Assembly (NCBI GenBank): GCA_026387965.1
Contig: JAPLKR010000025.1
Coordinates: 1 to 47,534, forward strand
DNA: 47,534 bases
Direction of reading: 5' to 3'
Source: Fusobacteriota bacterium
Lineage (GTDB): Bacteria > Fusobacteriota > Fusobacteriia > JAPLKR01
This document shows positions 5,915 to 43,185 of the stretch, piece after piece. Every line of letters starts with the position of its first letter. Position 1 is the stretch's first letter. A program made the position numbers and the translations under genes. Under the pieces are notes generated by a model that was not told the DNA's origin, ran no database searches, and was given only the letters and a program-made list of their open reading frames with translations.

Positions 5915-5921
5915 GAGTAGA

Positions 5922-10517: not shown

Positions 10518-11306
10518 TCACACTCCCATAAAATTTGGTTTTCGTTTCTCACAAAAAGCTTTAATTCCCTCTTGATAATCTTGACTTTCATATACTTCTT
10601 GGCGCATACGTTCTATTTTTTTCCTTAAATGCGGTGATACCTCTCCACAAGAAAGAAGCACATCTATTTCAACTTTAACCAGCTCAATATACAAGGGGGA
10701 CTTTTCACAAATAGTAATTGCAATTCTCTTGGCAAACTCTAAACTCTCTTCTTTATCAACAATATGATTAACGATTCCATATTCCATAGCTTTGTGACAG
10801 TTAATAGAACTAGCGGTATATAACATTTCTTTTAAATGATGAACACCTATGATACTCAGCATACTTTTTATGCCCTCTAAAGGATACGCCAGCGTGAAAT
10901 TGGCCGGGGTAATGGCAAAAAGACAATCGGGAGTTGCAATTACAATGTCTGTTAATAAAACAAGCTCAAAAGCACCGCCATATACACCGCCATTTACCAC
11001 TGAAATGATTGGCTTGGAAAAGTTTTTTATTTGATTAATAACACTTCTGAAATTACTACTTTCCCCCAGAGGATCTCCAAAAATATCTTTGAAATCTTTA
11101 ATACTATGGCCTGAAGAAAACATTTTACACTCTTTCGAAGCTTTTAATATTACACAGTGTGAACTGCTCTTTGAAATTTCATCAAAAATATCTGAAATTT
11201 CCGAAAGCATCTGTTTATTCAAGTAGTTATGTTTTGATGCGCAATTTAACTCGACAATAGAAATCAATCCCTCTTGATAATAATTTATCATTTCGTATTT
11301 TTTCAT
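10518..11306 (-). CDS. crotonase-superfamily enzyme, methylmalonyl-CoA decarboxylase (YgfG/ScpB)-like
   Basis: 262 aa. FSSGHSI, KPIISVVNGGVYGGAFELVL and the C-terminus YESQDYQEGIKAFCEKRKPNFMGV closely parallel E. coli YgfG as I recall it (..YDSEDYQEGMNAFLEKRKPNFVGH). Confidence 0.7.
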   Translation of the reverse strand: MKKYEMINYYQEGLISIVELNCASKHNYLNKQMLSEISDIFDEISKSSSHCVILKASKECKMFSSGHSIKDFKDIFGDPLGESSNFRSVINQIKNFSKPIISVVNGGVYGGAFELVLLTDIVIATPDCLFAITPANFTLAYPLEGIKSMLSIIGVHHLKEMLYTASSINCHKAMEYGIVNHIVDKEESLEFAKRIAITICEKSPLYIELVKVEIDVLLSCGEVSPHLRKKIERMRQEVYESQDYQEGIKAFCEKRKPNFMGV

Positions 11307-15536: not shown

Positions 15537-16580
15537 CTACTCACTCCATTTTCGAAGAATTGCACGCACAGGGCTGCCATCACCATCTTCAATTTTTAGA
15601 GGAAGTGCAATCAACTCATAAACACCTTCTGAAACATTTTCTAAATCAAGGCCTTCTAATGCTCTCATATCGTATTTTGCAATTGCATGGTGTGCACTAA
15701 ATCCAGTCTTTTCATTGTCAACACTTGGTGTATCAACACCTATCAAAACAACATCTTTAAAATAGAGATATTCAATTGCTTCACGTGAAAGAGCGACAAA
15801 GCTATTTTCAAATTTTTCTTTATTGAGTGCACTATTGGTTTTAAGTAAAATTCTTGGTGCATGAACATAGTATTGCTTTAATATCTCAACTGAAATAATA
15901 CCATTCTTTAAGGATTCATCACTAATGTCTAAAACTTGCGCTTTACCAATATAAAAATTCAAACTATCATTTTCAAAGCTATTTTTACACTTCATAAAAT
16001 GCGAACGCGAATCTACATGTGCCCCTAAATGCAGTGCCGTCTCAACACTAGAAAGATTTAACATGTCACCCTTTTCCATACTACTTGAAACAATTCTTTT
16101 AAAAGGTACATCTGTTGGGTATACTGCCGTTCTTTCACTGATGGTCGGTGTTATGTCAAACAGAATTTCCTGTTTACTATTTTGTAAAAAATCATGTGCA
16201 TCTCTCAAAATATTCATAGCGCTCATATATGTTAAAAGCGAAATAGCTTCTTTATATGAAACCCATTTTATTTCAAGAACCTCCTCAACTTGAACTTTAA
16301 TGTCATCGCTTAAAGCTTTTGCAAGAAAAAAAGTAACAGTTTTATTTGAATTTGCTTTAGGGGAATACTGTACTCTACGACTAAAGTCAGGCATTAAATC
16401 AACTTTCAATCCAGTTTCTTCATAAATTTCCCTTTTGGCCGCAGTAATATTTGATTCTCCTTCCTCTAAATGTCCTTTTGGAAAATCCCAATGCCCACCA
16501 TTTTTATGTATTATGACTAAATATACAATAATAGTTTTTAAACGATATACTACTGCTCCTGCAGAATACTCTATTTTCAT
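15537..16580 (-). CDS. Nudix hydrolase fused to a putative cyclase / kynurenine-formamidase-like domain
   Basis: Perfect Nudix box GHLEEGESNITAAKREIYEETGL in the N-terminal ~140 aa. The C-terminal ~200 aa carries the cyclase-family metal motif HLGAHVDSRSHF and IGVDTPSVD..SAHH. ATG 16580 is preferred over TTG 16583. Confidence 0.75.
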   Translation of the reverse strand: MKIEYSAGAVVYRLKTIIVYLVIIHKNGGHWDFPKGHLEEGESNITAAKREIYEETGLKVDLMPDFSRRVQYSPKANSNKTVTFFLAKALSDDIKVQVEEVLEIKWVSYKEAISLLTYMSAMNILRDAHDFLQNSKQEILFDITPTISERTAVYPTDVPFKRIVSSSMEKGDMLNLSSVETALHLGAHVDSRSHFMKCKNSFENDSLNFYIGKAQVLDISDESLKNGIISVEILKQYYVHAPRILLKTNSALNKEKFENSFVALSREAIEYLYFKDVVLIGVDTPSVDNEKTGFSAHHAIAKYDMRALEGLDLENVSEGVYELIALPLKIEDGDGSPVRAILRKWSE

Positions 16581-16588
16581 CAATTCCC

Positions 16589-28799: not shown

Positions 28800-30716
28800 T
28801 TAACCTTTTAATATTTTTAAATGCCCAAGTAGAAGCTTTTTTTCATTCATCTTAGGGTTTTTCCAAACGTACTCCACACACGCCTGAAGTGCTTCTCCTA
28901 TCTCTTTTCCTTGATATGTTTCAACTAAATCACTTCCTGTTAGCGCTAGATCAAAAAGTGTTATTGGCTCTTTCTTCATCAGAATATCCTCAATCATATC
29001 CTCAATTTCACAAAACAGTTTGAAACAGTGAGGCTTTGATTTTCCATAGACGTCTGCTCTAAAAAGATGAAGTAAATTACGATATTTTTCTAGAGATAAC
29101 TCAGAGATTGCCCTTTTGATATCCACTCTCTGATAAGCTCTCCACGACGAGTGATATCTAATATACTCCATACTCTCTTTAGCCACTACATTACTTACTT
29201 TAAGGCGCGCAAATATTACTTCACTCATTTTTGCACTTAACTCGGCATGTCCCGAGTATTTTGCAAATCCATCCTCTCTCATCACCTGACAATGGGGCTT
29301 TGAAATATCGTGAAGCAGTGCAGAGAGTCGAAGCGGCAAATGCACTGGGGTATGCTCTACAACGGCAAAAATATGTTCGTGAAGTTCATAACATTGGTGT
29401 TTTGCACGCTGATTAAATCCTATACAAGCATTAAATTCTGGAATTATAATGGATAAAACACCGCTTTCACATAGTAGTTCTAACCCTCTTCTCACATTAT
29501 TACTGAGTAGTATCTTAAAAAACTCAATAGCAACCCTTTCGCTTGAAAGGGTTGCTATCCCCTCTTTTAATACTTTCATCGCTTCAAGGGTATTCTCTTC
29601 AATCTCAAATTTCAACTCCGTAGCATGACGTAGACCTCTAAGTATTCGTAAATAATCCTCTTGAAAACGGAGTTTTGGTTCTCCTACTGCCACAATTTTC
29701 CCCTCAAGCAAAGCACTCACACCTTGATATGGGTCCACGAGTCCCTCTTTTAAGTTGTAGGCAAAAGCATTCATGGTAAAATCTCTACGAGATAAATCTT
29801 CAACAATATCACTTACAAACTCAATATTCTTAGGATGTCTCCCATCTAATATTCCCCACTCTTTCCTATATCTAGCTATATCAAAGAGATAATCCCCCAT
29901 TTTTATTTGAACAATTTCGAAGGATTTTCCTACAATAATTGGATGATACGCTTCAAATATTTCACATATTTCAGCGCTTGAAAGAGTGGTTGCAAAATCA
30001 TAATCCCTAGGTGAAATATTTAAAAGTAAATCTCTGACACTTCCTCCCACCACATACCCCGTGCCCTTTAAATTAAGTTTTTCGAGTACGTACTCAACTT
30101 CAGATGGCAAAACTATCCTCTCAAGCTTTGAGTATAAACAACCGCAATAATCTTGTCGATATACATTATACTCTTTTGAGAGTTCTACACTCGCTCTAAA
30201 TCCGTTTTGTTTTTTAAAATCCGCTACGAGAAATTTCACCCCGTAAATCTTTTCAAAATGCCGCCCCAATTCATTAATCCATTTAGAATTTTTATGAGGA
30301 CTTACCGAAATAGATGTTGAAAAGTACTCATACCCACGTGCCTTCGCTTTTTTCGCGCTCTCTCGAAGTCGAATAGCAAAGCACCTCTTACAGCGGGGTC
30401 CACCCTCTCTCTCTTCACTATGGATACGTGTAATTTGATTAAACTCTTTTGGGTCGAAGGGGGCTACTATGACATTTTCCTTATATCCCCTTCCTTTAAC
30501 ATACTTTTCAACTGCTTCAGAGCGAAGAGAATACTCGCTTTTCGGAAAAATATTCGGATTATAAAAAAATAGTGTCACATCAAAAAGTTCTCTTAATTTT
30601 TCTAGCACTGAGGTTGAACAAGGCGCACAACATACATGTAGAAGCAGTTTGGGTTTGCTCTCTAACCTCTTTATCGATCCCATCGTTTCTATATATTCTT
30701 GATAATCATTTACCAT
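28800..30716 (-). CDS. fusion protein: epoxyqueuosine reductase QueH (DUF208) + class II tRNA nucleotidyltransferase (CCA-adding, with HD domain)
   Basis: Residues ~20-200: LLLHVCCAPCS, FFYNPNIFP, GPRCKRCFAIRL, VSPHKN, YRQDYCGCLYS (QueH). Residues ~215-638: GGSVRDLLLN..DYDFAT, RRDFTMNA, EDYLRILRGLR, then HD-type LHDISKP. A single uninterrupted 638-aa ORF. Confidence 0.8.
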   Translation of the reverse strand: MVNDYQEYIETMGSIKRLESKPKLLLHVCCAPCSTSVLEKLRELFDVTLFFYNPNIFPKSEYSLRSEAVEKYVKGRGYKENVIVAPFDPKEFNQITRIHSEEREGGPRCKRCFAIRLRESAKKAKARGYEYFSTSISVSPHKNSKWINELGRHFEKIYGVKFLVADFKKQNGFRASVELSKEYNVYRQDYCGCLYSKLERIVLPSEVEYVLEKLNLKGTGYVVGGSVRDLLLNISPRDYDFATTLSSAEICEIFEAYHPIIVGKSFEIVQIKMGDYLFDIARYRKEWGILDGRHPKNIEFVSDIVEDLSRRDFTMNAFAYNLKEGLVDPYQGVSALLEGKIVAVGEPKLRFQEDYLRILRGLRHATELKFEIEENTLEAMKVLKEGIATLSSERVAIEFFKILLSNNVRRGLELLCESGVLSIIIPEFNACIGFNQRAKHQCYELHEHIFAVVEHTPVHLPLRLSALLHDISKPHCQVMREDGFAKYSGHAELSAKMSEVIFARLKVSNVVAKESMEYIRYHSSWRAYQRVDIKRAISELSLEKYRNLLHLFRADVYGKSKPHCFKLFCEIEDMIEDILMKKEPITLFDLALTGSDLVETYQGKEIGEALQACVEYVWKNPKMNEKKLLLGHLKILKG

Positions 30717-31826: not shown

Positions 31827-33143
31827 ATGCAAAAAATTAGAGGCTCTCGTTTATATCTACTTTTTATGATGTTTTTTGGACTTGGCTATGTAGCACTTGC
31901 TGATAGTCCGGAAGTGCTCACTGCTGAAGTTGTACAAACCAATTTAGATTACACATGGACTCTTATCGCAGCTGCTATGGTATTTTTTATGCAAGCGGGA
32001 TTTGCAATGCTAGAGATAGGATTTACAAGAGTAAAAAATGCAGGAAATGCTGTAATGAAAAATGTCATGGATTTTTGTGTTGGAATGCTCGTATACTCCG
32101 CGGTTGGCTATGCCTTTATGTTTGGAACGGGCGGCGTTATTGGAAGCTCAAACTTTTTTCTTGATGGACTCACTGGTTGGGATTGGACTTTTTTCCTTTT
32201 TCAGGCGATGTTTGCTGCCACTGCTGCTACCATTATGGCCGGGGCAATTGCTGAGAGAACTAAATTTTCAAGCTATCTTGTAGCAAGTATTGTTCTTACC
32301 GCCATTATTTATCCTCTCTATGGGCATTGGGTTTGGGCAAATGGAGGTTGGCTAAAAGCGTTAGGTTTTACTGATTTTGCTGGTTCTGCTGTTGTACACT
32401 CGGTTGGAGGGTGGTTTGCGCTTGCTGGAGCAATTATGGTCGGACCGCGAATTGGAAAATTTGTATGCAAAAGAGCTACGGCTATCCCAGGCCACAATAT
32501 TCCCATGGCGGCACTTGGCGTATTCATACTCTTTTTTGGATGGTTTGGATTTAACGCTGGAAGTGTGACAAAAGGAATTTCTGATATTGGCCCCATTGCA
32601 GTTAATACCTGTATTGCAGGCTCTGCCGGTGGCGTTGCAGCAATGATTTTCTCCTATTATATCTTTAAAAAAATGGATATTGGAATGACTTTAAATGGTA
32701 TCCTTGCTGGACTAGTAGCGATTACAGCTGGATGTGCTAGCATGCCAACTTGGGCAGCTTTTGTGGTAGGAATTATTGGAGGAGTCTTAGTTGTCTCTTC
32801 TGTTTTATTTTTTGATAGAATCGGTGTAGATGACGCAGTAGGTGCCGTCTCTGTTCATGGTGTAACCGGAACTTGGGGAACCCTCGCTGCAGGAATATTT
32901 TTCTCTGACCGTATGTTTGATTTTCACGTAATTGGAATTCAAATTCTAGGAAGTGTTGTGGCATTCATAATGGGGTTTGGTGGCGGTTTAATCATTCTTT
33001 ATATCTTAAAAAAAACTATGGGACTTCGTGTAAGAAGAGAAGAAGAACTAGAAGGATTAGATATGGCAGAACATGGAAGTGTTGCTTATCCTGAATTTCA
33101 ACCCAAAAGCGAACTCAGCATTATTTTAAGTGTGAAAAAATAG
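31827..33143 (+). CDS. amtB: ammonium transporter
   Basis: 438 aa with N-terminal signal-like segment. DFAGSAVVHSVGGW and GFNAGS motifs, GVHGVTGTWG. Followed by a PII gene. Confidence 0.92.
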   Translation: MQKIRGSRLYLLFMMFFGLGYVALADSPEVLTAEVVQTNLDYTWTLIAAAMVFFMQAGFAMLEIGFTRVKNAGNAVMKNVMDFCVGMLVYSAVGYAFMFGTGGVIGSSNFFLDGLTGWDWTFFLFQAMFAATAATIMAGAIAERTKFSSYLVASIVLTAIIYPLYGHWVWANGGWLKALGFTDFAGSAVVHSVGGWFALAGAIMVGPRIGKFVCKRATAIPGHNIPMAALGVFILFFGWFGFNAGSVTKGISDIGPIAVNTCIAGSAGGVAAMIFSYYIFKKMDIGMTLNGILAGLVAITAGCASMPTWAAFVVGIIGGVLVVSSVLFFDRIGVDDAVGAVSVHGVTGTWGTLAAGIFFSDRMFDFHVIGIQILGSVVAFIMGFGGGLIILYILKKTMGLRVRREEELEGLDMAEHGSVAYPEFQPKSELSIILSVKK

Positions 33144-33169
33144 ATTTACTACCCATTTGGAGGTGTGAA

Positions 33170-33508
33170 ATGAAAAAAATAGAGGCAATTATTCGCCCAA
33201 GTGTTATCCATGCAATCAAAGAAGCTCTTGTGGCAGAAAATATTTTAGGCATGACGCTTACTGAAGTAAGGGGCTTTGGTAAACAAAAAGGTCATACTGA
33301 ACTTTTTCGGGGGATTGAATTTCAAGTGGAATTTGTAAATAAAGTAAAAGTTGAAATTATTGTGAGTGATGATAAGCTAGAAAGGGTTATCTTTATTTTT
33401 CTCACACATGCACGTACGGGAAAAGTAGGTGATGGAAAAATTTTCATCTATCCTGTTGATGATGTCATCCGTGTGAGAACTGGAGAGCGTGGAGATAGTG
33501 CTATTTAA
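33170..33508 (+). CDS. glnK: nitrogen regulatory protein P-II (GlnK type, amtB-linked)
   Basis: 112 aa, collinear with E. coli GlnB/GlnK: MKKIEAIIRP.., T-loop GFGKQKGHTELFRGIEF, TGKVGDGKIF. Confidence 0.92.
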   Translation: MKKIEAIIRPSVIHAIKEALVAENILGMTLTEVRGFGKQKGHTELFRGIEFQVEFVNKVKVEIIVSDDKLERVIFIFLTHARTGKVGDGKIFIYPVDDVIRVRTGERGDSAI

Positions 33509-33570: not shown

Positions 33571-35013
33571 TTATTTCCAGCTCGGAGGGTGATATCCTGC
33601 TGGAACACTCTCTTTTTCCCAATAGGCTTTGGTTAATGAATAGTGAACCGGGGACCCAAAATATTCTAAAAATCCATGGCCAGAGTGCCCTGAAAGCATA
33701 TAATCGGGAAGTACACTCATATCGAGTGTAACACCTTCTATCTCTGATTTTGAAAATTTACCAAAACTTTGAAGCCACATAGCTGTTTGAGCGAGTGAAA
33801 CCTTAACGATATAGCTCCCACCCTCTTTTTCACGCTTAATAAGTGCCGCTAACGTCCCAACTGCTGCAAGATAACCTGTAATATAGTCATTTGGGAAAGT
33901 TGGAAGCATTGCAGGTACCCCATTTTCACCTTGTTCGATATCAAGACCTGTTGCCGTTTGAGCTAACTGCTCCCATCCTGGAAAATATTTCCACGGTCCA
34001 TGATGACCATAACAGTTGATAGAAATATAGATTATCCCTTTTCCTTGCTTTGAGAGACGATTTGCAATATCTTGAGCGCCAAACCCATATTTATCAAATG
34101 TTTTTGGTCTAAAACTCTCTGAAAAAATATCTGCCCCCTCCTCTATGAGTTTCCACATAGTGTTTTTACCCCGCTCATCTCTCAGATCGATCATTGTATT
34201 TCTCTTCCCTTGGCTTGTATCCATAAGAAAGGGAAGTATATAAGGAACATGGGGAGGGTTAATTCTCATAACATTTGCGCCTTGCTCAGCAAGCATCATC
34301 CCGCAGGTTGGTCCAGCAAGTACATGGGTTAGATCAAGCATCTTAACACCACTTAAGGGTCGAAGTTCCCCCTCTTCTTGCGCAGTAAAAGGCTGTGGAT
34401 TCCCATCTGCAATTTTCTCAATTTCTATAGGCATTAATAGGCCATCTTTCATGTGTGTTTCTTGAAGCACTTTGCCCTGTTCTGTTTTATCCCACTCCTC
34501 ACGGGTTCGACATACCACACAACACAGATGTGCATTTTGCACTGTTTTTTCAAGTTCAAAAGCGTCCCACTCTTTTACTGCATGTGCAATATCCTCATGG
34601 TTGTCTGCACATTGTAAAATTTTCAAAAGTCCTCTTCGGAGCTTTGGAAATCCCCCATTAATAAAGACCCATTTCCCCCCTTTAGCTTCATAAAGTCCCA
34701 CACATGGGTACTCTATATCAGGAAAGGGAATTTCATACCCATTATTTCTCATAAAGGCGCATCTCAGCGTTGAAAGTGCCGCAACATTAAGATCAATCTC
34801 AATCGTTTGCTGATGCTTTTCTCCACTGCGAATATCATATATTTTTGAAATAAGGGCTGCCATTGCAGAGAGTGCGGTCGCTGAAGCCTCTCCAATATGC
34901 CACGGTGACGGAGATACTGGCTCGCATCCAGTGATTTTAATCTCAACTCCCTCTGTGCTTAACCCTAAGTGTTTCAGAAGATGATCGTAATGCCTTTGCA
35001 TAACTTCATTCAT
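33571..35013 (-). CDS. family III (CaiB/BaiF-type) CoA-transferase with ~220-aa N-terminal extension
   Basis: The canonical N-terminal fingerprint GVKMLDLTHVLAGPTCGMMLAEQGANVMRINPP starts only at residue ~221. The catalytic-Asp region is PNDYITGYLAAVGTLAAL. 480 aa. Confidence 0.7.
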   Translation of the reverse strand: MNEVMQRHYDHLLKHLGLSTEGVEIKITGCEPVSPSPWHIGEASATALSAMAALISKIYDIRSGEKHQQTIEIDLNVAALSTLRCAFMRNNGYEIPFPDIEYPCVGLYEAKGGKWVFINGGFPKLRRGLLKILQCADNHEDIAHAVKEWDAFELEKTVQNAHLCCVVCRTREEWDKTEQGKVLQETHMKDGLLMPIEIEKIADGNPQPFTAQEEGELRPLSGVKMLDLTHVLAGPTCGMMLAEQGANVMRINPPHVPYILPFLMDTSQGKRNTMIDLRDERGKNTMWKLIEEGADIFSESFRPKTFDKYGFGAQDIANRLSKQGKGIIYISINCYGHHGPWKYFPGWEQLAQTATGLDIEQGENGVPAMLPTFPNDYITGYLAAVGTLAALIKREKEGGSYIVKVSLAQTAMWLQSFGKFSKSEIEGVTLDMSVLPDYMLSGHSGHGFLEYFGSPVHYSLTKAYWEKESVPAGYHPPSWK

Positions 35014-35044
35014 TTTATACCCTCCATAAAAATTAGATAAATTC

Positions 35045-35075
35045 AGAAAAAATGCTACTTAAAAAGTAGCATTTC
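35045..35075 (-). terminator. rho-independent terminator after the ter gene
   Basis: AAATGCTACT taaaaa AGTAGCATTT, a 10-bp stem followed on the minus strand by TTTTTT. Confidence 0.7.
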
Positions 35076-35082
35076 TTTGTTA

Positions 35083-36160
35083 TTAGTAATTTAATTTAGC
35101 CAGTGCATCCACATTAATGGGGATATCATAGTCAATGTTTGAAAAACCAAATCCATTAAGTTCTAAGAACTCTTGCATAAACCCTTCGATATCTGAACAG
35201 CTATGTAGGTTTTCGTTTGATACTTTAGACATTAACGCTTCCACTTCTGCTTGCACAGCTGGAACCATCTCAAGATTATCCCCTCTTACTCGTCCTTTAG
35301 CATCTACCACACGCTTATCACCATACACCATATCTACAACCAATCTTTCGATTTGTCCGATACAATCTTCGTGAATTTTGTTCTCTTTCATTACTTTATA
35401 CAAAATACTGCAATAGATTGGGAATAGTGGAATATAAGCGCTTGCTTTTGTTACGAGCGCTTTACACACTGAAACAAAACCTTCTCCATCTACTTTTTTC
35501 ATTAAATCATTAATTTCAAATGCTTTTTTTTCTAAATCTCTTTTTGCTGCACCAATTGTTCCACCTTCATAGATTGGATACATAGCTTTTGGTCCTTCAT
35601 AAGAGTAAGCTGTTGTAATACACCCTTCAGCTAGAACACCTGCTTCTAGAAGCATTTTCATCCAAAGCTTCCAATCTTCTCCACCCATAACTTTTACAGT
35701 ATTGAAGATATCTTCCTCAGTGGCTTTTTCCATTTTTCCAGCAACGATTGTCCCAGTTGTAAGGTCGATAGTATTTGCTTCAATAGCGCCATCGATGCTT
35801 TTAAGAGCTGACATATATGTTTTTCCATCAATTGGGTCTGTTCTTCTACCTGAAGCAAGTGAATATACCACTAAATCCACTTTACCACCAAACACCTCTT
35901 TGATGTAGTCAATAACAGCTTTTTTCATTTCCATTCCAAAAGCATCCCCTACGAAGTTTTTAGCCAGTAATCCTTTTTTTTCTGCAAACTCTTTTACCCA
36001 AATGTTATTCCACCATCCAGCCGTTCCAACTCTTTTATCAGAAACACCTAGTTCAAAAGAGATTCCAATCGTATCCGCTCCACATCCAAATGCTGAAACA
36101 ATACGCGTTGCGGTTTTTTGATACTGCACCTTTAAATTCTGGTTTAATAATCATTTCCAT
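35083..36160 (-). pseudogene. trans-2-enoyl-CoA reductase (Ter/FabV family), apparently disrupted
   Basis: The long frame (GTG 36129) matches Ter/FabV from ..RIVSAFGCGADTIGISFE.. through VMGGEDW, YSYEGP, KALVTKASAYIP to the C-terminus. The SD-preceded ATG at 36160 encodes MEMIIKPEFKG (FabV-like N-terminus) in a different frame and stops after 35 codons. The frames meet at an A6 run (36113-36118). Confidence 0.7.
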
Positions 36161-36161
36161 T

Positions 36162-36533
36162 TTACAAAATCTCCTGATTTTCTGATTTGGGGGGTATTCC
36201 TGTTGCTAGCCCTCTCGCTAATACTGCATTGTTTTGATTCTTGCACTCAATTTTAATTTTAGCGAGTTTAAATACTCTTTTTTCTTGAATTTCTGCGATT
36301 TCAACCCTTAACGTCAATACATCATTTACGTGAACTTGAGAAAAATACTCTGTTTCTTGTTCTCTGTATATTGCACCATCACCGAGTAACTTTCCAATTG
36401 CTGATGAGACCATCCCTTGCACAAAAAATGCGGTTATTACGCTTGGAATCGCTTCATTTTCGATATTTAATAGAGTTTTAACTTGATTTATATCGCTTGC
36501 TTTGATTTCTAATTCTAACATAAAATTATTCAT
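36162..36533 (-). CDS. MaoC-like hot-dog protein 4 (hydratase motif absent)
   Basis: 123 aa. No D-x-N-P-x-H motif. C-terminal half is paralogous to protein 2 (KIKIECKNQNNAVLARGLATGIPP versus KIKIECYNQDEELVATGTATVIPP). Confidence 0.65.
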   Translation of the reverse strand: MNNFMLELEIKASDINQVKTLLNIENEAIPSVITAFFVQGMVSSAIGKLLGDGAIYREQETEYFSQVHVNDVLTLRVEIAEIQEKRVFKLAKIKIECKNQNNAVLARGLATGIPPKSENQEIL

Positions 36534-36546
36534 ACATTCTCCTAAA

Positions 36547-36942
36547 CTATGTCAATTTTGATAAAATTTCAACATCACATTTCCAAATCATAAGTTGCTG
36601 ACCCGATGCATTGAAACATCTACCAATAAAGTTTATATTATTTCCCTCGAATGCTAAAACTTCAATTTTTGAAGTAAATTTTTCATTCATTTTTAGAGGT
36701 ACTTTGAAAATTGTTGACTCTTTACATAGTTTAAAATTTTGCTTAATAATTCTTTGAAGATCACTGGTTATAGTTGCCACAATAAGCATACCATGAACTA
36801 TTTTATCCTCTATCTTGTCACCTTTACTTGCATCTACAAGATGAATAGAATTAAAATCTGTACTCAATTTTGCATATGTTTCCACATCACTTTGACTAAT
36901 CATATGTTCGAATTCAAAAATTTTTCCTACCTTCATTTTCAC
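36547..36942 (-). CDS. MaoC-like hot-dog protein 3 (Asp/His of hydratase motif retained)
   Basis: 131 aa. YAKLSTDFNSIHL with downstream VHGML. Confidence 0.65.
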   Translation of the reverse strand: MKMKVGKIFEFEHMISQSDVETYAKLSTDFNSIHLVDASKGDKIEDKIVHGMLIVATITSDLQRIIKQNFKLCKESTIFKVPLKMNEKFTSKIEVLAFEGNNINFIGRCFNASGQQLMIWKCDVEILSKLT

Positions 36943-36947
36943 CTCAC

Positions 36948-37364
36948 TTATTCAATGGTTGGGGGTATCACAGTAGCTGTTCCTGTAGCCACCAACTCTT
37001 CATCTTGATTATAACATTCTATTTTGATTTTTGAAATAATAAAATTCTTTTTCTCAATAATTTTTTCAACGATGGCTTTCACAATAACCGTATCATTTGC
37101 AAAAACATTCTTTAAAAATTGTGTCTCTTGCTCAAGATAAATTGATCCAAAACCCGGCATTTTTGCGCCTAGCGTTGCAGAAATAAGCCCCTGAATATAA
37201 ATATTTTGAACAAGTTTTTTTGTAAAACCAGCTTCTTTCCAGTAGAGTTCATTGGTACATAGAGGGTTTCTATCTCCTGTAATACTTTCAAAATTATACA
37301 CATCACCATCCGTTATTGTTCTAATATAGTAAGCGGTTTGTCCAATTTTAAGATTAGTTTTCAT
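36948..37364 (-). CDS. MaoC-like hot-dog protein 2 (catalytic His replaced by Cys)
   Basis: 138 aa. FESITGDRNPLCTN where canonical enzymes have ..NP[LIV]H. Overlaps protein 1 by 11 nt. AGGAG RBS. Confidence 0.65.
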   Translation of the reverse strand: MKTNLKIGQTAYYIRTITDGDVYNFESITGDRNPLCTNELYWKEAGFTKKLVQNIYIQGLISATLGAKMPGFGSIYLEQETQFLKNVFANDTVIVKAIVEKIIEKKNFIISKIKIECYNQDEELVATGTATVIPPTIE

Positions 37365-37818
37365 ACAATGCTCCTTCGCCTACTAAATTTGGTATCAGCG
37401 TTTCAACGCTCCCCTCTGTAACAATCACACCCTCTTGATTAACACATGTGGTGTTTAACGTTATTTTAAGTCCCTCTATTTTAATAATTTCAAGATTAAC
37501 TGTAATACTATCTCCTACAAATACAGGCTTTTTAAATTGTATATGTTGTTTTGTCACAATGGTTCCAAGCCCAGGAAGTTTTTGAGTAATAGCCCCTGAA
37601 ATATACCCTGCACAAATCATCCCATGCATAACACGATGCTTAAACATCCCATCCTTTGAATGCTCTTCATCAATATGTGCTGGATTAAAATCACCCGTAA
37701 TTCCAGCAAATAAATATATGTCAAATGTTTCTACTGTTTTAGTAAACATTCCTTTATCTCCAACCTTTAACTCTTTTGGTACGCTATCTCTAAGTATCTG
37801 TCTAATATCAAACATCAT
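37354..37818 (-). CDS. MaoC-like (R)-specific enoyl-CoA hydratase 1 (canonical motif)
   Basis: 154 aa. FAGITGDFNPAHIDEEHS plus VMHGM, a full hydratase-2 motif. Confidence 0.75.
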   Translation of the reverse strand: MMFDIRQILRDSVPKELKVGDKGMFTKTVETFDIYLFAGITGDFNPAHIDEEHSKDGMFKHRVMHGMICAGYISGAITQKLPGLGTIVTKQHIQFKKPVFVGDSITVNLEIIKIEGLKITLNTTCVNQEGVIVTEGSVETLIPNLVGEGALYEN

Positions 37819-37827
37819 ATTTCCCCC

Positions 37828-38613
37828 TTATCTCATGTTCCAACCGTGCGATACGATTAAATCTTGTCCTGAATAAGCATTAGATTTTGCGCTAGCAAAA
37901 AACAAAACTGCCTCCGCTACTTCTTCAACTGTTGTAAATTCTCCATCGATGGTGTTTTGAGTCATAGATCTAAGAACTTCCGCTTCTGATATATTCTCAA
38001 GCTTAGCTCTCTCAGGAATTTGTTTTTCGACAAGTGGTGTTAATACAAATCCTGGTGCTACTAGATTACATGAAATATTATGAGGACCGCCTTCAATAGC
38101 TATCGTTCTTGTTAGCCCAACCACTGCATGTTTTCCTGCAACATAAGCTGCTTTATCTGTTGAAGCCAGAAATGAGTGAACTGATCCAATATTTACAACC
38201 CGCCCAAAACTATTTTTTTTCATGATTTTAAAACATTCACGTGACATATAAAAACTACCATGTAAATTGATATTTAAAAGTGAATGCCACTTTTCGGAAG
38301 TAAAATCTTCAAACTTCTCAATAATTTGAATACCTGCATTATTTACTAAAATATCTATTTGTCCATGTTCTTTTTCCATTTGAGTGATAAACGCAATAAC
38401 CTCTTGCTCGTTTGAAATGTCAAGTTTGTGTCCAATAACTTCTACACCACACTCAAGAGAGATATCCTTAGCGGCTTGTACGCATATTTCCTCTGTTGGC
38501 AGACCAACCACTATTACTTTACCTCCTGCATTAGCAAGTGCAACGGCAATTCCTTTACCAATTCCTGAAGTTCCACCTGTTACAATTGCAACTTTTCCTG
38601 TTACTGTCATCAT
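37828..38613 (-). CDS. SDR, 3-hydroxybutyrate dehydrogenase-like
   Basis: GKVAIVTGGTSGIGKG, NNAGIQ, S..x..AYVAGKHAVVGLTR, PGFVLTPLVEKQI, C-terminal HGWNMR. These parallel D-beta-hydroxybutyrate dehydrogenases as recalled. ATG 38613 (AAGGAG 10 nt upstream) is preferred over 38640. Confidence 0.72.
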   Translation of the reverse strand: MMTVTGKVAIVTGGTSGIGKGIAVALANAGGKVIVVGLPTEEICVQAAKDISLECGVEVIGHKLDISNEQEVIAFITQMEKEHGQIDILVNNAGIQIIEKFEDFTSEKWHSLLNINLHGSFYMSRECFKIMKKNSFGRVVNIGSVHSFLASTDKAAYVAGKHAVVGLTRTIAIEGGPHNISCNLVAPGFVLTPLVEKQIPERAKLENISEAEVLRSMTQNTIDGEFTTVEEVAEAVLFFASAKSNAYSGQDLIVSHGWNMR

Positions 38614-38636
38614 TTTGCATGCTCTCCTTAACTTTT

Positions 38637-40208
38637 TCATAGGGTAAGTCCCATTTTTTCTATCTTAAACAATCTAGAATCCATAAGTTTTAGCTCTTTA
38701 GAAATATTGGGTTTAAAACTCATATGTGCTAAAATATCACGTTCTAAATCTACGCCTGGAGCTATTTCTATAAGCGTAAATCCTTCGTTCGTAATTTTAA
38801 AAACCGCTCTCTCCGTAACGTAGTGAACAATTTGTCCTTTTTCTCTCGCATATTCACCACTAAAAGTAATCTGCTCTACAAAATCAATAAGCTTCGGAAC
38901 ATTTCCATCCTTAATTATCTTAAACGCACCATTACCTGTTTCAAACTGCATCTTTCCAGCCATAAATGTTCCACAAAATACTACATTGTGCGTATTTTGT
39001 GAAATATCAATAAATCCACCGCATCCTGCAATTTTCGGTCCAAATTTAGATACATTTACATTTCCAAAGATATCACACTCTGCCATACCTAGAAAAGTAA
39101 TATCAAGTCCACCACCATCATAAAAATCAAACTGGTATGCATGGTCTAAAATGGCTTGTGGTGCACGTAGTGCTCCAAAACTCAACCCCCCGGCCGCGAT
39201 TCCACCTATTCCACCTGGCTCAACCGTTGGCGTGAAATTATCCGATATCCCCTCTTCTTCAATAACTTGCGCCACAACTTCTGGGAGGCCTATTCCAAAG
39301 TTTAATACTTTCATCTCTTTTTGTAAAAACATCGCAGCACGTCTTGCAATAATTTTTCTTTCATTTAGAGGATAAGGAAAAAAATCATCTTTTTCAATAG
39401 GCTTTGAACTAATATATTCTGGATTAAAATCCTCTGCAAATGTTTGCATGTGATTCTTCATATCTTCTACTTCTACAACAAAATCAACGCATATCGATGG
39501 GATAACAACACTTTTTGGATCGAGTGTTCCATTAGGAACAATTTTCTCAACTTGTACAATCACTTTCCCTCCTGAATTTCTTGCAGCCATCGCCATAGGA
39601 AGATTTTCTATTTTTAACGCTTCTTTTTCCATACTGATATTTCCATATTCATCTGCATAAGTCCCTCGAAGTATCACAAAATCAAATCGCCCCGTTTTAT
39701 AAAGAAGAAAGTCCTGTCCATCTATTTGTGTTTTTTTCACTAAATCTTGTTGAGTTTTCGAATTAAGTTTCCCCCCTTCTAGATCTGGATCTACAAACGT
39801 GTGCATCCCTACTTTACTAATAGCGTAGCCCTTTTTTCCCGCAATAGTTCTAAGAAGTTGATTAAGTATCCCTTGTGGAAAATTGTATGCTTCAATTTTA
39901 TTTTCTGCAACCAATGCTTGAAGCCTTGGCGAAAGGCCATAATGTGCGCCAATTGTTCTTTTCAGTAACCCTTCATAGGCAAAACGTGAAAGTCCTTTTT
40001 CTGCACCATTCCCTTGCCCTGCAACAAAAAACAGGGATAAATCTCTGGGGCTCTTAGTTTCTAAAAACCGTTTTTCAATAGCTTTATAAATTTCTTCTGC
40101 AACCGCTATTCCCACGAACCCACCAATACCCACTCTAGCACCATCAAATATCATCTCTGCAGCTTCAACTGCTGTAATTTTTTTCACTAATATTATACTC
40201 CTATACAA
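38637..40208 (-). CDS. family I acyl-CoA:acetate/3-ketoacid CoA-transferase (fused alpha-beta, YdiF type)
   Basis: 523 aa. Catalytic-Glu block TVEPGGIGG and C-terminus EIAPGVDLERDILAHMSFKPNISKELKLMDSRLF match E. coli YdiF as recalled. The start is TTG 40208 or GTG 40187. Confidence 0.8.
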   Translation of the reverse strand: MYRSIILVKKITAVEAAEMIFDGARVGIGGFVGIAVAEEIYKAIEKRFLETKSPRDLSLFFVAGQGNGAEKGLSRFAYEGLLKRTIGAHYGLSPRLQALVAENKIEAYNFPQGILNQLLRTIAGKKGYAISKVGMHTFVDPDLEGGKLNSKTQQDLVKKTQIDGQDFLLYKTGRFDFVILRGTYADEYGNISMEKEALKIENLPMAMAARNSGGKVIVQVEKIVPNGTLDPKSVVIPSICVDFVVEVEDMKNHMQTFAEDFNPEYISSKPIEKDDFFPYPLNERKIIARRAAMFLQKEMKVLNFGIGLPEVVAQVIEEEGISDNFTPTVEPGGIGGIAAGGLSFGALRAPQAILDHAYQFDFYDGGGLDITFLGMAECDIFGNVNVSKFGPKIAGCGGFIDISQNTHNVVFCGTFMAGKMQFETGNGAFKIIKDGNVPKLIDFVEQITFSGEYAREKGQIVHYVTERAVFKITNEGFTLIEIAPGVDLERDILAHMSFKPNISKELKLMDSRLFKIEKMGLTL

Positions 40209-40267
40209 AATGAGACATGATTCATTTTACAATATTCGTGTGAAGTTTGTGCGATATAAACTATGTG

Positions 40268-41392
40268 TTACAATTTGTTTTTTGTCCCACTTTCTAAAAA
40301 CTTTAAAACTTTTTTATACAGTGTGTCAGAATTTTTTATCAACTTCGTATAGAACATATCAATCCCAGCATAATGACTGATTCCAACCATAATGCAAGAT
40401 ATTAATAGCTTCTCTTCGATACTGTAAGATGTAGTCTCAAGCACCCTCATAAAGAGCCTTTTTATCCTATCATATCTTTCACTAAAAGTTTTGAAATGAA
40501 ATTCTGCATCCCTAATAATTCTATATTGTTCCGGGGTGATCGAAAAATAAGACTGTATCAAATACAACATTTTCAGTGTATTGGTAAATTTATCTTCATA
40601 TTTGAACGTATTCTCATATACAATTTCTTCAATTTGAGAATCAAATAATTCTAAAATAACTTTCAGAACTTCCTCTTTATTTTGAAAACAGTGATAAAAT
40701 GACCCTGTACTATACCCAAGTTCTTTCATAATCACTTCGATTTTAACATTAAAATATCCCATTTTTCCAAAAAGTTCTGTGGCCTTTCTCACTATTTGCA
40801 TTTTTTTTGAAAGTGTTAAGGGAGTTTTTAGAAAACAGTCACTGGCTTCAATAATTTTATTTAAATCACATTGGCTTTTTTCATTAAATCCTTCAAGAAT
40901 AAACCGTACCAAGAACTCACAATCTAGTTTTTCATTTAATCTAAAATATGCAATAGAGGTATAACGAATAGCTGCCATAACAATAACATATTGGTACTCT
41001 GAAATTTCGCATTTATATACTTTTTTCAAAGTTTTAATATAAATATCACGAATAGCCAGTTCATATTCAATAAATGTATACTGGGCTTCTCTAAATAATC
41101 GTACCAAATTGTATTCGTTTTCAATAACTTCATAATTTAATTCTATAAATTTTTTCAACCGATGTTCAACATTAGCACCATCTATAACTTCAAATTTTAT
41201 TTTATGTTTATCAAGAAGACTGTTTACCAGAGCTGAAAAAATATCCCGCTTACTTGAAAAATAGTTATAAAATACACCATTTGATACTTTTGCATGTGAT
41301 GTGATTTGTAAGACCGAAACTTCATCATATGGTAGAGTTGAAAAAATTTCAATTGCTGATCTTATCAGTTTATTTTCAATATTATCTTTCAT
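40268..41392 (-). CDS. TetR-family regulator with two tandem TetR modules
   Basis: 374 aa. HTH 1 at ~9-55 (IRSAIEIFSTLPYDEVSVLQITSHAKVSNGVFYNYFSSKRDIF). HTH 2 at ~198-245 (IVRKATELFGKMGYFNVKIEVIMKELGYSTGSFYHCFQNKEEVL). Confidence 0.8.
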   Translation of the reverse strand: MKDNIENKLIRSAIEIFSTLPYDEVSVLQITSHAKVSNGVFYNYFSSKRDIFSALVNSLLDKHKIKFEVIDGANVEHRLKKFIELNYEVIENEYNLVRLFREAQYTFIEYELAIRDIYIKTLKKVYKCEISEYQYVIVMAAIRYTSIAYFRLNEKLDCEFLVRFILEGFNEKSQCDLNKIIEASDCFLKTPLTLSKKMQIVRKATELFGKMGYFNVKIEVIMKELGYSTGSFYHCFQNKEEVLKVILELFDSQIEEIVYENTFKYEDKFTNTLKMLYLIQSYFSITPEQYRIIRDAEFHFKTFSERYDRIKRLFMRVLETTSYSIEEKLLISCIMVGISHYAGIDMFYTKLIKNSDTLYKKVLKFLESGTKNKL

Positions 41393-41412
41393 TTGCCTTC
41401 CTTTCTAACGCA

Positions 41413-41441
41413 ATGATACAATTCATCACCTTAATTGTCAA
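41413..41441 (-). promoter_or_regulatory. sigma70-type promoter TTGACA-17-TATCAT with embedded ACAATT-N9-AATTGT dyad
   Basis: Minus-strand reading gTTGACAattaaggtgatgaattgTATCAT, then AGGAAGG and the ATG of the TetR gene. Confidence 0.55.
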
Positions 41442-41443
41442 CT

Positions 41444-41472
41444 AAAAAATCTAGTGTCTCCACTAGATTTTT
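41444..41472 (-). terminator. rho-independent terminator after the FAD-oxidoreductase gene
   Basis: AAAAATCTAGTG gaga CACTAGATTTTTT on the minus strand. The stop codon lies inside the stem. Confidence 0.7.
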
Positions 41473-42848
41473 GATTTTAAATAATATTTTGCTATTTCTT
41501 TTGGATAACCTCTTCTAACGGCAATAGCTTCTGCAACTTCTTCTATTTTGCTGGATTCTGTTTTTAATGGAACTATTTCTATAGTTTCTCCCAATATTTT
41601 TTCTATAATTTTTCTTGCAATATTAATAATTGAGGAGTATTTGACTAGCTCAATACGAATATAGTTTTCAGAAAAATCCACGCCCCCTGTACGCTTAGAA
41701 ATTTCACCTTTAGAAATTTTTTGAATACCAAAAAATGGCTTATATACCACATTACCTATGTCAAAAATTTTAATATATTTACCAATTTTTGAAACGGCAC
41801 TATAAGTTCTTCTTTCTAGTTCTTCTTTACTAAACCCTTGTATCAAAATATTTTCAACTACGCTATTTAAACTTAGTTTTTCATCACTACATGAGTGGCT
41901 TATCCCATTTTCAAAAAGAGTGGATTCGTGCGTCATTGAGTGAAGCTGAAAATAATTACCACATTGTGGTGTCAATTGCCCCATTCCTTTTGTCGTGCCT
42001 CGAATGCCGTGAAAAATTATTTCAGGTATCGTTTTTAATTGCGTACAGTTAACCAGATAGGCTGCTTTAAACTCAACCATCTCCTCTTCATAAATACCTA
42101 ATAATTTATCAACGGCACCACTTTGATATCCTGCAGCATTTACTACGAAGTCTACTTGAATAAAATGCTCACATTCTTCACACTTTAAAAGTAACTCTAA
42201 CGTCTCTTCTTTCATACAAATACCTAATACCTGACTATTTAAATGTACTTTTACAGAACTATTTTTCAATTCTTCTTCGATTAGTGCTGCAATGCGAAAG
42301 AGTGCGATTCCAGGTTCATTGATCATCATGATTGGAAATTTCAGTGTATCTAGTACAAGCTTTTCAACAACATTTCCTAACCAATCACTATGAGTTATTG
42401 GCTCTTCTACATAAGGTTTATCAAGCAGCTTTGCTACATCATCTTCATAATAAAGTGTATAGTAGTTATCGGGGAGGCCTAAAACTTCATTTCTTAGGTC
42501 TTGTGAAATAAGTTCAAAGTAATATTTTTTTAGCTCTTGCGCCTTATCTATAAGCTCTTCTAATTCGAATGGAATATCTTTTGGAACACACAAAAGTGTC
42601 GGCCTATGATTGATTCCAAGAGGATATCTTCTTGCAAATTCTATTGATTCACGTAGTAATTCTTTCGCATCCTCTACTGGTATTTCTGGATATAAATTAC
42701 CCCCTGCATGTAAATGACATGCAGGAGGGCCATTAACGACTTCATTCCCTTTTTCAATCAAATGAACTTTCATCCCATATTTTTCAAGTTCGAGAGCAAC
42801 AGTAGTTCCTGAAATTCCTGCTCCAATCACCGCAACCGTCTTACTCAC
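41463..42848 (-). CDS. FAD-dependent oxidoreductase (DAO-like), substrate unknown
   Basis: GTG 42848 lies 6 nt after GGAGG and gives VSKTVAVIGAGISGTTVALEL..VHLIEK (GxGxxG plus acidic end of beta2). 461 aa. The annotated longer ORF (to 42920) overlaps the upstream gene by 80 nt. Confidence 0.65.
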   Translation of the reverse strand: MSKTVAVIGAGISGTTVALELEKYGMKVHLIEKGNEVVNGPPACHLHAGGNLYPEIPVEDAKELLRESIEFARRYPLGINHRPTLLCVPKDIPFELEELIDKAQELKKYYFELISQDLRNEVLGLPDNYYTLYYEDDVAKLLDKPYVEEPITHSDWLGNVVEKLVLDTLKFPIMMINEPGIALFRIAALIEEELKNSSVKVHLNSQVLGICMKEETLELLLKCEECEHFIQVDFVVNAAGYQSGAVDKLLGIYEEEMVEFKAAYLVNCTQLKTIPEIIFHGIRGTTKGMGQLTPQCGNYFQLHSMTHESTLFENGISHSCSDEKLSLNSVVENILIQGFSKEELERRTYSAVSKIGKYIKIFDIGNVVYKPFFGIQKISKGEISKRTGGVDFSENYIRIELVKYSSIINIARKIIEKILGETIEIVPLKTESSKIEEVAEAIAVRRGYPKEIAKYYLKSKI

Positions 42849-43185
42849 TTTTGTCCTCCGTAATGACTGAATTTTGAAGCCCTGGACACTCTTCATGTTG
42901 CCATTCCCAAGGGAAATCACTACACTGTTTAGGTCTTACAGCATAAATTTGACACTTTTTTGACTCTACATCGTAATAGATGCACGTTCCATTTTCAGGT
43001 TCAGTTAAAGCTAATCCTTTTCGACTTGGGGCAAGAGTGGTGAAATTTTCAATATAATTCGCTTCACTCATTTTTAAAAAACTTGAAATGGCCTTAATAT
43101 CTTTTCTAGTGATAAAAACAAACCCCTTCCATTCACAACACTTTCCGCATAAAGTGCAACTGAATTTCTCGAAATCGTATCTCAT
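42841..43185 (-). CDS. YkgJ/UPF0153-family Cys-cluster (zinc/iron-chelating) protein
   Basis: CTLCGKCCE N-terminal motif and C-terminal CxxF..ECP-type cysteines. 114 aa. Confidence 0.6.
   Translation of the reverse strand: MRYDFEKFSCTLCGKCCEWKGFVFITRKDIKAISSFLKMSEANYIENFTTLAPSRKGLALTEPENGTCIYYDVESKKCQIYAVRPKQCSDFPWEWQHEECPGLQNSVITEDKSE

Follow-up and report, generated by a model that had tools for sequence, protein, structure and literature searches.

A candidate TetR-controlled operon for C4 'ketone bodies' with a disrupted ter gene in a Fusobacteriota contig

Gene content of the cluster and the ter deletion

We analyzed a stretch of 47,534 nt from a Fusobacteriota bacterium (contig JAPLKR010000025.1; hereafter the window, with a G+C content of ~34%) and focused on a cluster of acyl-CoA genes on its minus strand, between positions 43185 and 33571. 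An earlier note, made from the letters of this DNA, had described the cluster as a regulated operon that could convert 3-hydroxy acids into saturated acids. From the family identities, active-site residues, gene order, and conservation observed here, we read it as a TetR-controlled operon for the C4 'ketone bodies' (R)-3-hydroxybutyrate and acetoacetate, found in a small, little-sampled clade and either inactivated or mis-assembled in this copy, and we give this reading a probability of about 0.6.

The interval holds 11 minus-strand open reading frames (ORFs). Eight ORFs on this strand run from 40208/40187 to 33571 and encode, in order, a family I CoA-transferase, a 3-hydroxybutyrate dehydrogenase (Bdh), four hot-dog proteins (HD1 to HD4), a trans-2-enoyl-CoA reductase (Ter), and a family III CoA-transferase. 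The intergenic junctions along the operon measure -4 or +23, +9, -11, +5, +13, and +1 nt. This layout, with junctions of -11 to +23 nt, bears out the single short-junction operon described earlier. The gene family calls made at that time hold for the CoA-transferases, the dehydrogenase, HD1, the TetR protein, and the YkgJ/FAD proteins, whereas ter proved not to be intact.

The first gene (38637..40187, minus strand) encodes a family I CoA-transferase of 516 aa, of the YdiF/Pct type with fused alpha and beta parts, which belongs to the acyl-CoA:short-chain acid type. As had been proposed, it is YdiF-like, matching Escherichia coli YdiF (PDB 2ahu) over residues 4-515 with an E of 2e-128. Its Glu323, within TVEPGGIGG, is invariant in 35 homologues and aligns with YdiF Glu333, which we take to be the catalytic glutamate forming the enzyme-CoA thioester. 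Homologues run into the thousands, at 51-58% identity among the matches listed. The start is most likely GTG 40187 and not TTG 40208; the former, preceded by an AGGAG ribosome-binding site and yielding the 516-aa protein found in databases (P0001), is favored over the start at 40208 given in the earlier note.

The second gene (37828..38613, minus strand) encodes a member of the short-chain dehydrogenase/reductase (SDR) family, assigned from PDB and NCBIfam matches as a D-3-hydroxybutyrate dehydrogenase acting on the free acid. The protein passes NCBIfam model NF009093 (302.8 against a cut-off of 258) and falls below the cut-offs of the stricter models NF009931 and TIGR01963. Its best PDB matches were all D-3-hydroxybutyrate dehydrogenases (4trr, 6zzo, 3v2h, 2q2q, and 1wmb, E 5e-63 to 6e-52), which, together with the NF009093 score, upholds the 3-hydroxybutyrate-dehydrogenase-like SDR recognized before. 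In alignments with five solved enzymes of this kind, NAGIQ, SVHS, DKAAYVAGKH (K..Y...K), and PLVEKQI are conserved. The dehydrogenase carries the Ser-Tyr-Lys catalytic set and a Gln/His/Lys/Gln set of positions, presumably the carboxylate-binding residues that correspond to Q94, H144, K152, and Q196 of the P. fragi enzyme. The protein is 89% identical to its orthologue in the related locus L001. Its start probably falls at M10 or M11 within the longest ORF, the length annotated in L175, a contig of the same species, being 261 aa; an exact-sequence database look-up returned no match. We predict that this SDR is a true free-acid D-3-hydroxybutyrate dehydrogenase and not FabG.

The four hot-dog genes lie next on the minus strand. 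HD1 (37354..37818) encodes a PhaJ-type (R)-specific enoyl-CoA hydratase that is the putative catalytic subunit, with GDFNPAH and HGM kept; its best PDB match was 5cpg, a P. aeruginosa-type PhaJ (E 1e-25), and it also matched 1iq6 (E 2e-21). HD2 (36948..37364), 57% identical to its L001 counterpart, is a putative non-catalytic hot-dog partner of the class termed here HDb, in which Cys stands in place of the catalytic His and QN in place of HG. HD3 (36547..36942), a MaoC hot-dog protein that has diverged to 25-26% identity with HD1 and the HD1 class (HDa), keeps Asp, His, and HG (TDFNSIH...VHGM) and matches MaoC_dehydratas with an E of 1e-7. HD4 (36162..36533), which the same-species contigs L175 and L085 also carry, is a putative non-catalytic protein of the HDb class with the hydratase-motif region deleted, and it is 47% identical to the L001 HDb over the C-terminal 90 aa. 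Four MaoC proteins had been counted in the earlier reading; the Pfam MaoC_dehydratas scores confirm HD1 strongly (71 bits) and HD2 and HD3 more weakly (38 and 32 bits), whereas HD4 gave only a sub-threshold match.

HD1 to HD4 were aligned with the PhaJ of A. caviae (D31/H36) and with orthologues from three other lineages. The HDa class (HD1 and its orthologues) kept the Asp/His pair of GDFNPAH and the downstream HG, whereas in the HDb class (HD2 and its orthologues) the His is replaced by Cys or Ser and the HG by QN or PN in all four lineages. Because this motif loss holds in every lineage, HDb is likely to be a conserved non-catalytic partner. The hydratase-2 motif was found in HD1, the residues are kept within a degenerate motif in HD3, and HD2 and HD4 lack it, so the members of MaoC/PhaJ type in the catalytic sense would be HD1, possibly HD3, and no others. 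The four proteins thus appear to form two catalytic/non-catalytic pairs, of which the second is divergent or degenerate, and HD1 and HD2 would assemble as a heteromer. The hydratases had been called heteromeric-looking, and the two pairs of HDa/HDb type agree with this. HD3 differs between the window and L175 by three synonymous and one non-synonymous change, and the HD3/HD4 pair may perhaps still be under constraint.

The ter gene (trans-2-enoyl-CoA reductase/FabV family; 35083..36160, minus strand) is disrupted by a 119-nt out-of-frame deletion at 36112|36111. DNA alignment with L085, L175, and L001 shows 119 nt to be missing from the window between 36112 and 36111, and the frame shifts because 119 is not a multiple of three. 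Three-frame translation located the authentic start (MEMIIKPEFKG / MEMIIKPEFKGAVSKN) at ATG 36160, in another frame; this ATG sits 1 nt past the HD4 stop and now opens an ORF of 35 codons, and the remaining ter frame has 348 codons from GTG 36129, which has no ribosome-binding site. The long ORF (35083-36129) covers FabV profile positions 56-393 of 398 and no more. The lost peptide (PHPFGCKES...KKALIIGSSSGYGL) comprises strand β1 and the glycine-rich NADH loop, and the NADH-binding domain PF12242 was matched at positions 55-76 of 79 with 22.1 bits, under the cut-off of 23.4. The catalytic domain PF12241 gave a full-length match (E 8e-97), and direct reading of the sequence (...PIYEGGTIGAAKRD...) located the Tyr-X8-Lys motif, which we take to be the catalytic pair of Ter/FabV. 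Outside the deletion, the protein shares 93% identity with the Ter of L001 and 98% with P0121. It scores above the cut-off of the FabV subfamily model NF010177 and just misses the FabV equivalog (392 against 400).

An intact ter of 398 aa is present in two same-species contigs (99.4-99.6% nucleotide identity) and in more distant relatives. The near-identical metagenomic contig L085 encodes a 398-aa Ter with 98% aa identity, and L175, from a different run, is 99.6% identical over 4285 nt and reads ...SKNPHPF over the breakpoint. The deletion is either a real strain-specific loss or an assembly fault. A functional short Ter initiated at GTG 36129 was rejected on account of the missing ribosome-binding site, strand β1, and Gly-rich loop, and programmed frameshifting was rejected because the 119 nt of coding sequence are physically absent. 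The gene listed in the earlier note as a Ter/FabV reductase is thus frameshifted here and intact in L085 and L175, and, with ter disrupted, the proposed route from a 3-hydroxy acid to a saturated acid is not encoded intact in the window.

The broken ter raises the question of whether the cluster is a decaying remnant with no current function, or whether its Ter is a FabV that works with FabG-/FabZ-like partners in fatty-acid synthesis. Such a reading could draw on the absence of an acetoacetate decarboxylase (Adc), the internal deletion of HD4, the strong divergence of HD3, the FabV subfamily match, and the close Ter homologues (64-77% identity), which are stand-alone genes. We regard it as very improbable. 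All the remaining ORFs are intact and have ribosome-binding sites, and the conspecific ter is intact, with differences from the window that are mostly synonymous: among 16 coding differences between the window and L175, ~12 are synonymous and 3-4 non-synonymous, the call for a codon in the 5' part of ter being ambiguous. The cluster also encodes a free-acid dehydrogenase in place of FabG and two CoA-transferases, with no acyl carrier protein or ketosynthase.

Upstream of the operon, a double TetR protein (40268..41392, minus strand) is encoded as a single chain of 374 aa with two helix-turn-helix-plus-ligand modules. The unit of TetR_N and ligand domain occurs twice per chain, with two TetR_N stretches detected by Pfam and module starts at residues 3-9 and 194-202. 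The protein is 60% identical to its L001 orthologue and weakly resembles 3whb and 5gp9, structures of the Bacillus FadR that responds to acyl-CoA. A sigma-70-like promoter, TTGACA-17-TATCAT (41413..41441, minus strand), lies 5' of the gene and matches at 11 of 12 positions; its TTGACA is kept in L001. The two modules and this match agree with the earlier description of a two-module TetR with a promoter of its own. In the spacer between the TetR and CoA-transferase genes, the perfect inverted repeat AAAATGA-N8-TCATTTT (40207..40228) falls inside the block that is best conserved in comparison with L001. It is the obvious candidate operator for the double TetR, which would presumably regulate the operon. 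Double TetRs of ~370 aa, at 34-37% identity, recur beside YdiF-type CoA-transferase genes in the Fusobacteriota loci L008, L019, L034, L035, and L096 (Fusobacterium, Cetobacterium), which suggests a regulator-transferase pairing conserved across distant taxa.

Downstream of ter lies an AT-rich hairpin with a T-run (35050..35074, minus strand), whose stem contains three G-C pairs and which is a weak candidate for a terminator or attenuator. The family III CoA-transferase gene (33571..35013, minus strand) comes next, and a terminator-like hairpin is also found 3' of it, so that the earlier description of this gene as separately terminated stands, with hairpins before and after. Its 480-aa product has an unusual domain order: residues 220-417 match positions 1-205 of Pfam CoA_transf_3 (E 7e-49), residues 41-176 match profile positions 166-299 weakly, and the canonical order is not found. 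Asp376 aligns with Asp175 of Rv3272, the equivalent of Frc Asp169, and its conservation among 60 relatives is at least 90%. The protein aligns across the domain junction of tandem-duplicated relatives of ~750 aa. In its AlphaFold2 model (pLDDT 96), only ~210 residues superposed in order with canonical family III enzymes by Foldseek. The swapped domain halves look like a circular permutation that arose by duplication and truncation, which is notable against the architecture of the canonical family III enzymes, as these are interlocked dimers. The family of this protein counts 712 representatives at E <1e-30 and is uncharacterised. The enzyme is 82.5% identical to its L001 orthologue and is an accessory component, present in L001 and L173 and missing from L088 and L002.

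Conservation of the gene order in relatives

In L001 and L173, whose family I CoA-transferase (CoAT1) is 90% identical to that of the window, the order is TetR–CoAT1–Bdh–Adc–HDa–HDb–Ter(398 aa)–CoAT3, CoAT3 being the family III enzyme. The upstream neighbors of L001 are those of the window, namely a Cu-ATPase, a KefF-like flavodoxin, YgjP, YkgJ, and the FAD protein. L088 and L089 (CoA-transferase 69% identical) contain CoAT1–Bdh–Adc–HDa–HDb–Ter, without TetR or CoAT3. In L002-L004 (75%), the order is CoAT1–HDa–HDb::Ter–class I PHA (polyhydroxyalkanoate) synthase–thiolase–ferredoxin, and a Bdh+Adc pair follows at a distance of 3.7 kb on the opposite strand. The same-species contig L175 has the Adc-less order with four hot-dog genes seen in the window. 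The Adc of L001 scored 376 bits with NF002614 (cut-off 150), matched PDB 3bgt with an E of 3e-87, and conserves WGFPKK with its Lys-Lys motif; accordingly scored, the Adc of the sister operons is predicted to be a true acetoacetate decarboxylase.

HDb is fused in frame to Ter in proteins of 535 aa (L002:12017-13624, L003, and L004; P0123, P0125, P0126, and P0511). By the Rosetta-stone argument, this fusion suggests that HDb works with Ter, and it hints at a hydratase-reductase complex. One member of the fusion cluster comes from a metagenome-assembled genome labelled 'Proteobacteria bacterium' (RTK99522.1).

The full gene set was found in four narrow lineages only. As a background, we used 160 loci around distant CoA-transferase homologues (51-58% identity, among the matches listed), half from genomes and half from metagenomes. 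A PhaJ-like gene was nearby in ~44 of the 160 loci and Ter in 2, whereas Adc was near the CoA-transferase in none of the 160. The thiolase screen covered the metagenome half, where 23 of 80 loci had a thiolase nearby. The scan anchored on the CoA-transferase gave neither a close genome nor the full cluster in genome-collection loci among the matches listed, and a metagenome scan with the CoA-transferase of the window gave no close relative, L001 included, among the matches listed. The earlier note had left the recurrence of this gene order to a neighborhood comparison; the order does recur, in four lineages, but it is rare, and the presence of Ter near CoAT1 in 2 of 160 distant loci and in these lineages indicates that the full set is confined to a narrow clade.

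The two background loci with Ter show an independent pairing of CoAT1 and Ter. In Vibrio fluminensis (L026:6634-15674), a thiolase and a PhaB/FabG-like SDR are followed by LysR and then by CoAT1–MaoC–Ter–MFS (major facilitator superfamily)–esterase. This divergent gammaproteobacterial cluster would represent an independent C4 module, (R)-specific, built on Ter, and more complete. L117 contains Ter–CoAT1–thiolase–acyl-CoA dehydrogenase. Both loci, L026 with its thiolase, SDR, and MaoC and L117 with its thiolase, support the reading of the operon as one for C4 ketone bodies, and the combination of CoA-transferase, PhaJ, and Ter appears from its gene content to have arisen more than once.

Among the stand-alone homologues of Ter, those of L086:6285-7283 (77%) and L177:6966-7961 (64%) lie downstream of a GGGtGRT-family protein on unrelated contigs. 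The GGGtGRT gene adjoins Ter/FabV in L177 and is two genes off in L086, and GGGtGRT and FabV-like genes may form another conserved partnership.

Proposed route, alternatives, and the rest of the window

(R)-3-hydroxybutyrate is the monomer of poly(3-hydroxybutyrate) (PHB), and acetoacetate is its oxidation product. From the genes of the operon, we infer the substrates and the direction of flux as follows. The SDR would interconvert free (R)-3-hydroxybutyrate and acetoacetate with NAD(H), and the YdiF/Pct-type transferase would shift CoA from acetyl- or butyryl-CoA to 3-hydroxybutyrate or acetoacetate. The HD1 + HD2 heteromer, with HD3/HD4 as a second pair, would then dehydrate (R)-3-hydroxybutyryl-CoA to crotonyl-CoA, which Ter would reduce irreversibly to butyryl-CoA with NADH, and the transferase would finally free butyrate and recycle the CoA. 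Acetate and ATP would come from an oxidative branch formed by Bdh, the transferase, and a thiolase whose gene lies elsewhere, and butyrate from a reductive branch of the transferase, HDa/HDb, Ter, and again the transferase. The net dismutation would be 2 3-hydroxybutyrate -> 2 acetate + butyrate, to which Adc would add an acetone outlet in the sister operons. Such a route would match the (R)-stereochemistry of PHB monomers, would spare the epimerisation demanded by the (S)-specific Hbd/Crt, and would proceed with no Hbd, crotonase, or Bcd-Etf.

This chemistry, comprising an SDR, CoA transfer, (R)-specific dehydration, NADH-dependent enoyl reduction, and CoA recycling, had been proposed for the cluster before and fits the families that we found, as judged from their sequences. 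The C4 option, one of those considered then, is strengthened because the orthologous operons carry a true Adc between the dehydrogenase and the hydratases, and because in one lineage the neighboring genes encode a class I PHA synthase and a thiolase. The latter neighborhood, that of L002, suggests that the same module also takes part in turning over PHB made by the cell itself. Adc has free acetoacetate as its substrate, YdiF/Pct-type transferases use short acids, and PhaJ acts on (R)-3-hydroxyacyl-CoA; each conserved enzyme would fit C4 ketone-body chemistry with (R) stereochemistry, to which the gene set as a whole points. Independence from thiolase, Hbd, and Bcd, which the earlier note had suggested, cannot be claimed from a 47-kb window, as a thiolase adjoins the module in L002, L026, and L117.

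Several points weigh against this reading. The preference for C4 over C5-C8 acids is a prediction from the gene content, and heteromeric hot-dog hydratases elsewhere (HadAB, ChsH1/2) take bulky substrates. The species of the window, as seen in the window and in L175, has HD3/HD4 instead of the Adc that anchors the C4 assignment in the relatives. The family III CoA-transferase, HD3/HD4, and the FAD/YkgJ pair are not accounted for by the scheme. Ter and FabV are indistinguishable by sequence, and gene context alone favors a CoA carrier; moreover, the ter of the window, as written, is predicted to be unable to make an active enzyme. Finally, neither the operon nor the window contains a 3-hydroxybutyrate transporter, a thiolase, or Pta/Ack.

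The hot-dog pairs could be explained if the operon handled (R)-3-hydroxy acids of greater length or bulk, for example C5-C8 PHA monomers or different 3-hydroxyacyl units, with the non-catalytic partners opening the acyl pocket and HD3/HD4 broadening the range. The heteromeric design with a His-less partner is conserved, HD1 has the P. aeruginosa-type PhaJ 5cpg as its best structural match, both pairs are intact in the conspecific contigs, and hot-dog hydratases that work as heterodimers on bulky substrates are known, HadAB being among the matches. We nevertheless consider this reading improbable, as Bdh and Adc belong to C4-specific families, the dehydrogenase retains the full 3-hydroxybutyrate signature, and the neighboring PHA synthase is of class I (short-chain).

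The thiolase neighbors bear on a further explanation, in which the operon is a redox sink that makes butyrate (and acetone in the relatives) de novo from acetyl-CoA. A thiolase encoded elsewhere would supply acetoacetyl-CoA, and the CoA-transferase and Bdh would replace PhaB/Hbd: acetoacetyl-CoA + 3-hydroxybutyrate would give acetoacetate + 3-hydroxybutyryl-CoA, acetoacetate + NADH would restore 3-hydroxybutyrate, and PhaJ and Ter would carry the chain on to butyryl-CoA. Besides the thiolase adjoining in L002, L026, and L117, the Adc and CoA-transferase resemble the clostridial CtfAB-Adc arrangement, the operon has no uptake gene, and the Ter step is irreversible (PMC4700068). This explanation seems to us unlikely: a dedicated FadR-like repressor is more typical of catabolic, substrate-induced clusters, the window has no thiolase, and the Vibrio locus has a PhaB/FabG-like SDR in the place of Bdh, so that a Bdh shuttle is not needed there.

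Returning to the use of C4 ketone bodies, the intact operon could encode a natural, dedicated fermentation of PHB-derived (R)-3-hydroxybutyrate to butyrate without Hbd, crotonase, or Bcd-Etf, in which a hydratase-reductase complex channels crotonyl-CoA; we hold this extended proposal tentatively, at somewhat under even odds. To our knowledge, the natural role of bacterial Ter, a workhorse of metabolic engineering, is poorly defined. If true, a conserved Ter–Bdh–Adc–PhaJ–Pct/YdiF operon would give the enzyme a physiological context, and nature would already have assembled the 'synthetic' PhaJ-Ter driving-force design. The operon is also a gene-level candidate for the anaerobic fermentation of 3-hydroxybutyrate and PHB, with relevance to anaerobic bioplastic degradation and carboxylate recovery. 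For annotation, caution is advised, as a pathway prediction based on a gene list would over-call butyrate formation in this genome.

Further upstream of the TetR gene lies a separate unit on the minus strand. It consists of an FAD-dependent (DAO-type) oxidoreductase (41463..42896, start uncertain), with a terminator-like hairpin at 41440-41477 on its 3' side, and a YkgJ-type CxxCxxCC zinc- or iron-chelating protein (42841..43185; PF03692, E 8e-13), and these two domains agree with the YkgJ/FAD-oxidoreductase pair reported earlier. The oxidoreductase is 50% identical to its L001 orthologue and has no PDB relative detectable by sequence; the YkgJ-type protein is 81% identical to that of L001 over 74 aa. 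Among the loci read, the FAD gene was found upstream of TetR in the window and L001 alone, L173 having an unidentified partial ORF there. We found no support for the pair as part of the pathway, since it has its own terminator-like hairpin and is missing from L088 and L002.

The 47-kb window contains no thiolase, PhaC, or Adc, nor remnants of them. The absence of thiolase noted earlier for the cluster therefore extends to the whole window, whereas that of crotonase does not, as a crotonase-family (ECH_1) ORF of 262 aa (10518-11306, minus strand) lies ~24 kb from the cluster. Next to the cluster and convergent with it, an amtB-glnB pair (31827-33508, plus strand) encodes an ammonium transporter and a P-II protein, and this pair explains why the GC skew reverses locally at 32-34 kb. 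A complete lysine/diaminopimelate block (2959-7358, plus strand) comprises dapF, asd, dapA, dapB, and a DapH-type acyltransferase; its Asd is at most ~60% identical to the proteins of named organisms (Fusobacteriaceae, Hypnocyclicus, and Clostridium), which indicates that the source lineage is poorly sampled. Two further minus-strand ORFs have unusual architectures. In the first (15537-16583), a NUDIX hydrolase domain is fused to a 'putative cyclase' (PF04199), and the second (28800-30716) encodes a 638-aa protein of the CCA-adding/poly(A) polymerase family whose family match starts at about residue 207, leaving an unexplained N-terminal extension of ~200 aa.

Comparison with known systems

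The earlier note had not recognized this gene order as a described pathway, and we likewise found no natural operon with a Pct/YdiF transferase, Bdh, Adc, a heteromeric PhaJ, and Ter described in the searchable literature, whose coverage does not extend to all journals. What is already known is the physiology of 3-hydroxybutyrate fermentation in Ilyobacter and the engineered PhaJ + Ter chemistry. Against the order of its relatives, the window appears to be a variant in which Adc is lost, a second, degenerate hydratase pair is present, and ter is disrupted. Bile-acid (bai), lysine-fermentation (kal), and conjugated-linoleic-acid (CLA) saturation (CLA-DH/DC/ER) systems were considered and dropped, since the genes that define them are missing and the SDR and Adc are plainly orthologous to 3-hydroxybutyrate dehydrogenase and acetoacetate decarboxylase.

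The closest likeness in chemistry is to the engineered thiolase/NphT7-PhaB-PhaJ-T. denticola Ter route to butanol or butyrate (PMC4700068), which shares (R)-3-hydroxybutyryl-CoA, PhaJ, and an irreversible NADH-dependent Ter that replaces Bcd-Etf. In contrast to that route, the combination described here is natural, operonic, and regulated. The 3-oxo reduction is assigned to a free-acid dehydrogenase with a CoA-transferase and not to PhaB, the hydratase would be heteromeric, and the route would end with a CoA-transferase and not with an aldehyde dehydrogenase.

The conversion of 2 3-hydroxybutyrate into 2 acetate and butyrate is known in Ilyobacter (PMC10096456, citing Stieb & Schink 1984 and Janssen & Schink 1993). 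The fermentation by Ilyobacter polytropus and I. delafieldii shares with our proposal the overall conversion and the ecological link to PHB breakdown. That fermentation has been worked out through physiology and enzyme assays, and we found no description of it at the gene level with PhaJ and Ter.

The clostridial Thl-Hbd-Crt-Bcd/Etf pathway with CtfAB-Adc resembles the present system in its C4 acyl-CoAs, its acetoacetate CoA-transferase, and, for the sister operons, its Adc. It differs in stereochemistry, which would be (R) and not (S) here, and in its crotonase, in place of which the operon encodes MaoC/PhaJ-type proteins. In addition, Ter takes the place of the electron-bifurcating Bcd-Etf, and the operon is without thiolase or Hbd. 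Aerobic clusters of bdhA with scoAB/atoDA-type genes likewise pair Bdh with a family I CoA-transferase for acetoacetate; however, they pass acetoacetyl-CoA to thiolase for respiration and have no hydratase, enoyl reductase, or reductive branch.

For the hydratases, HadAB/HadBC of M. tuberculosis and ChsH1-ChsH2 offer the nearest parallel, with one subunit carrying Asp/His and a partner without it that probably shapes the acyl pocket. The similarity is distant (E 1e-6 or weaker), and the substrates of these enzymes are very long or steroid acyl chains, in contrast to the C4 context of the HD1/HD2 pair.

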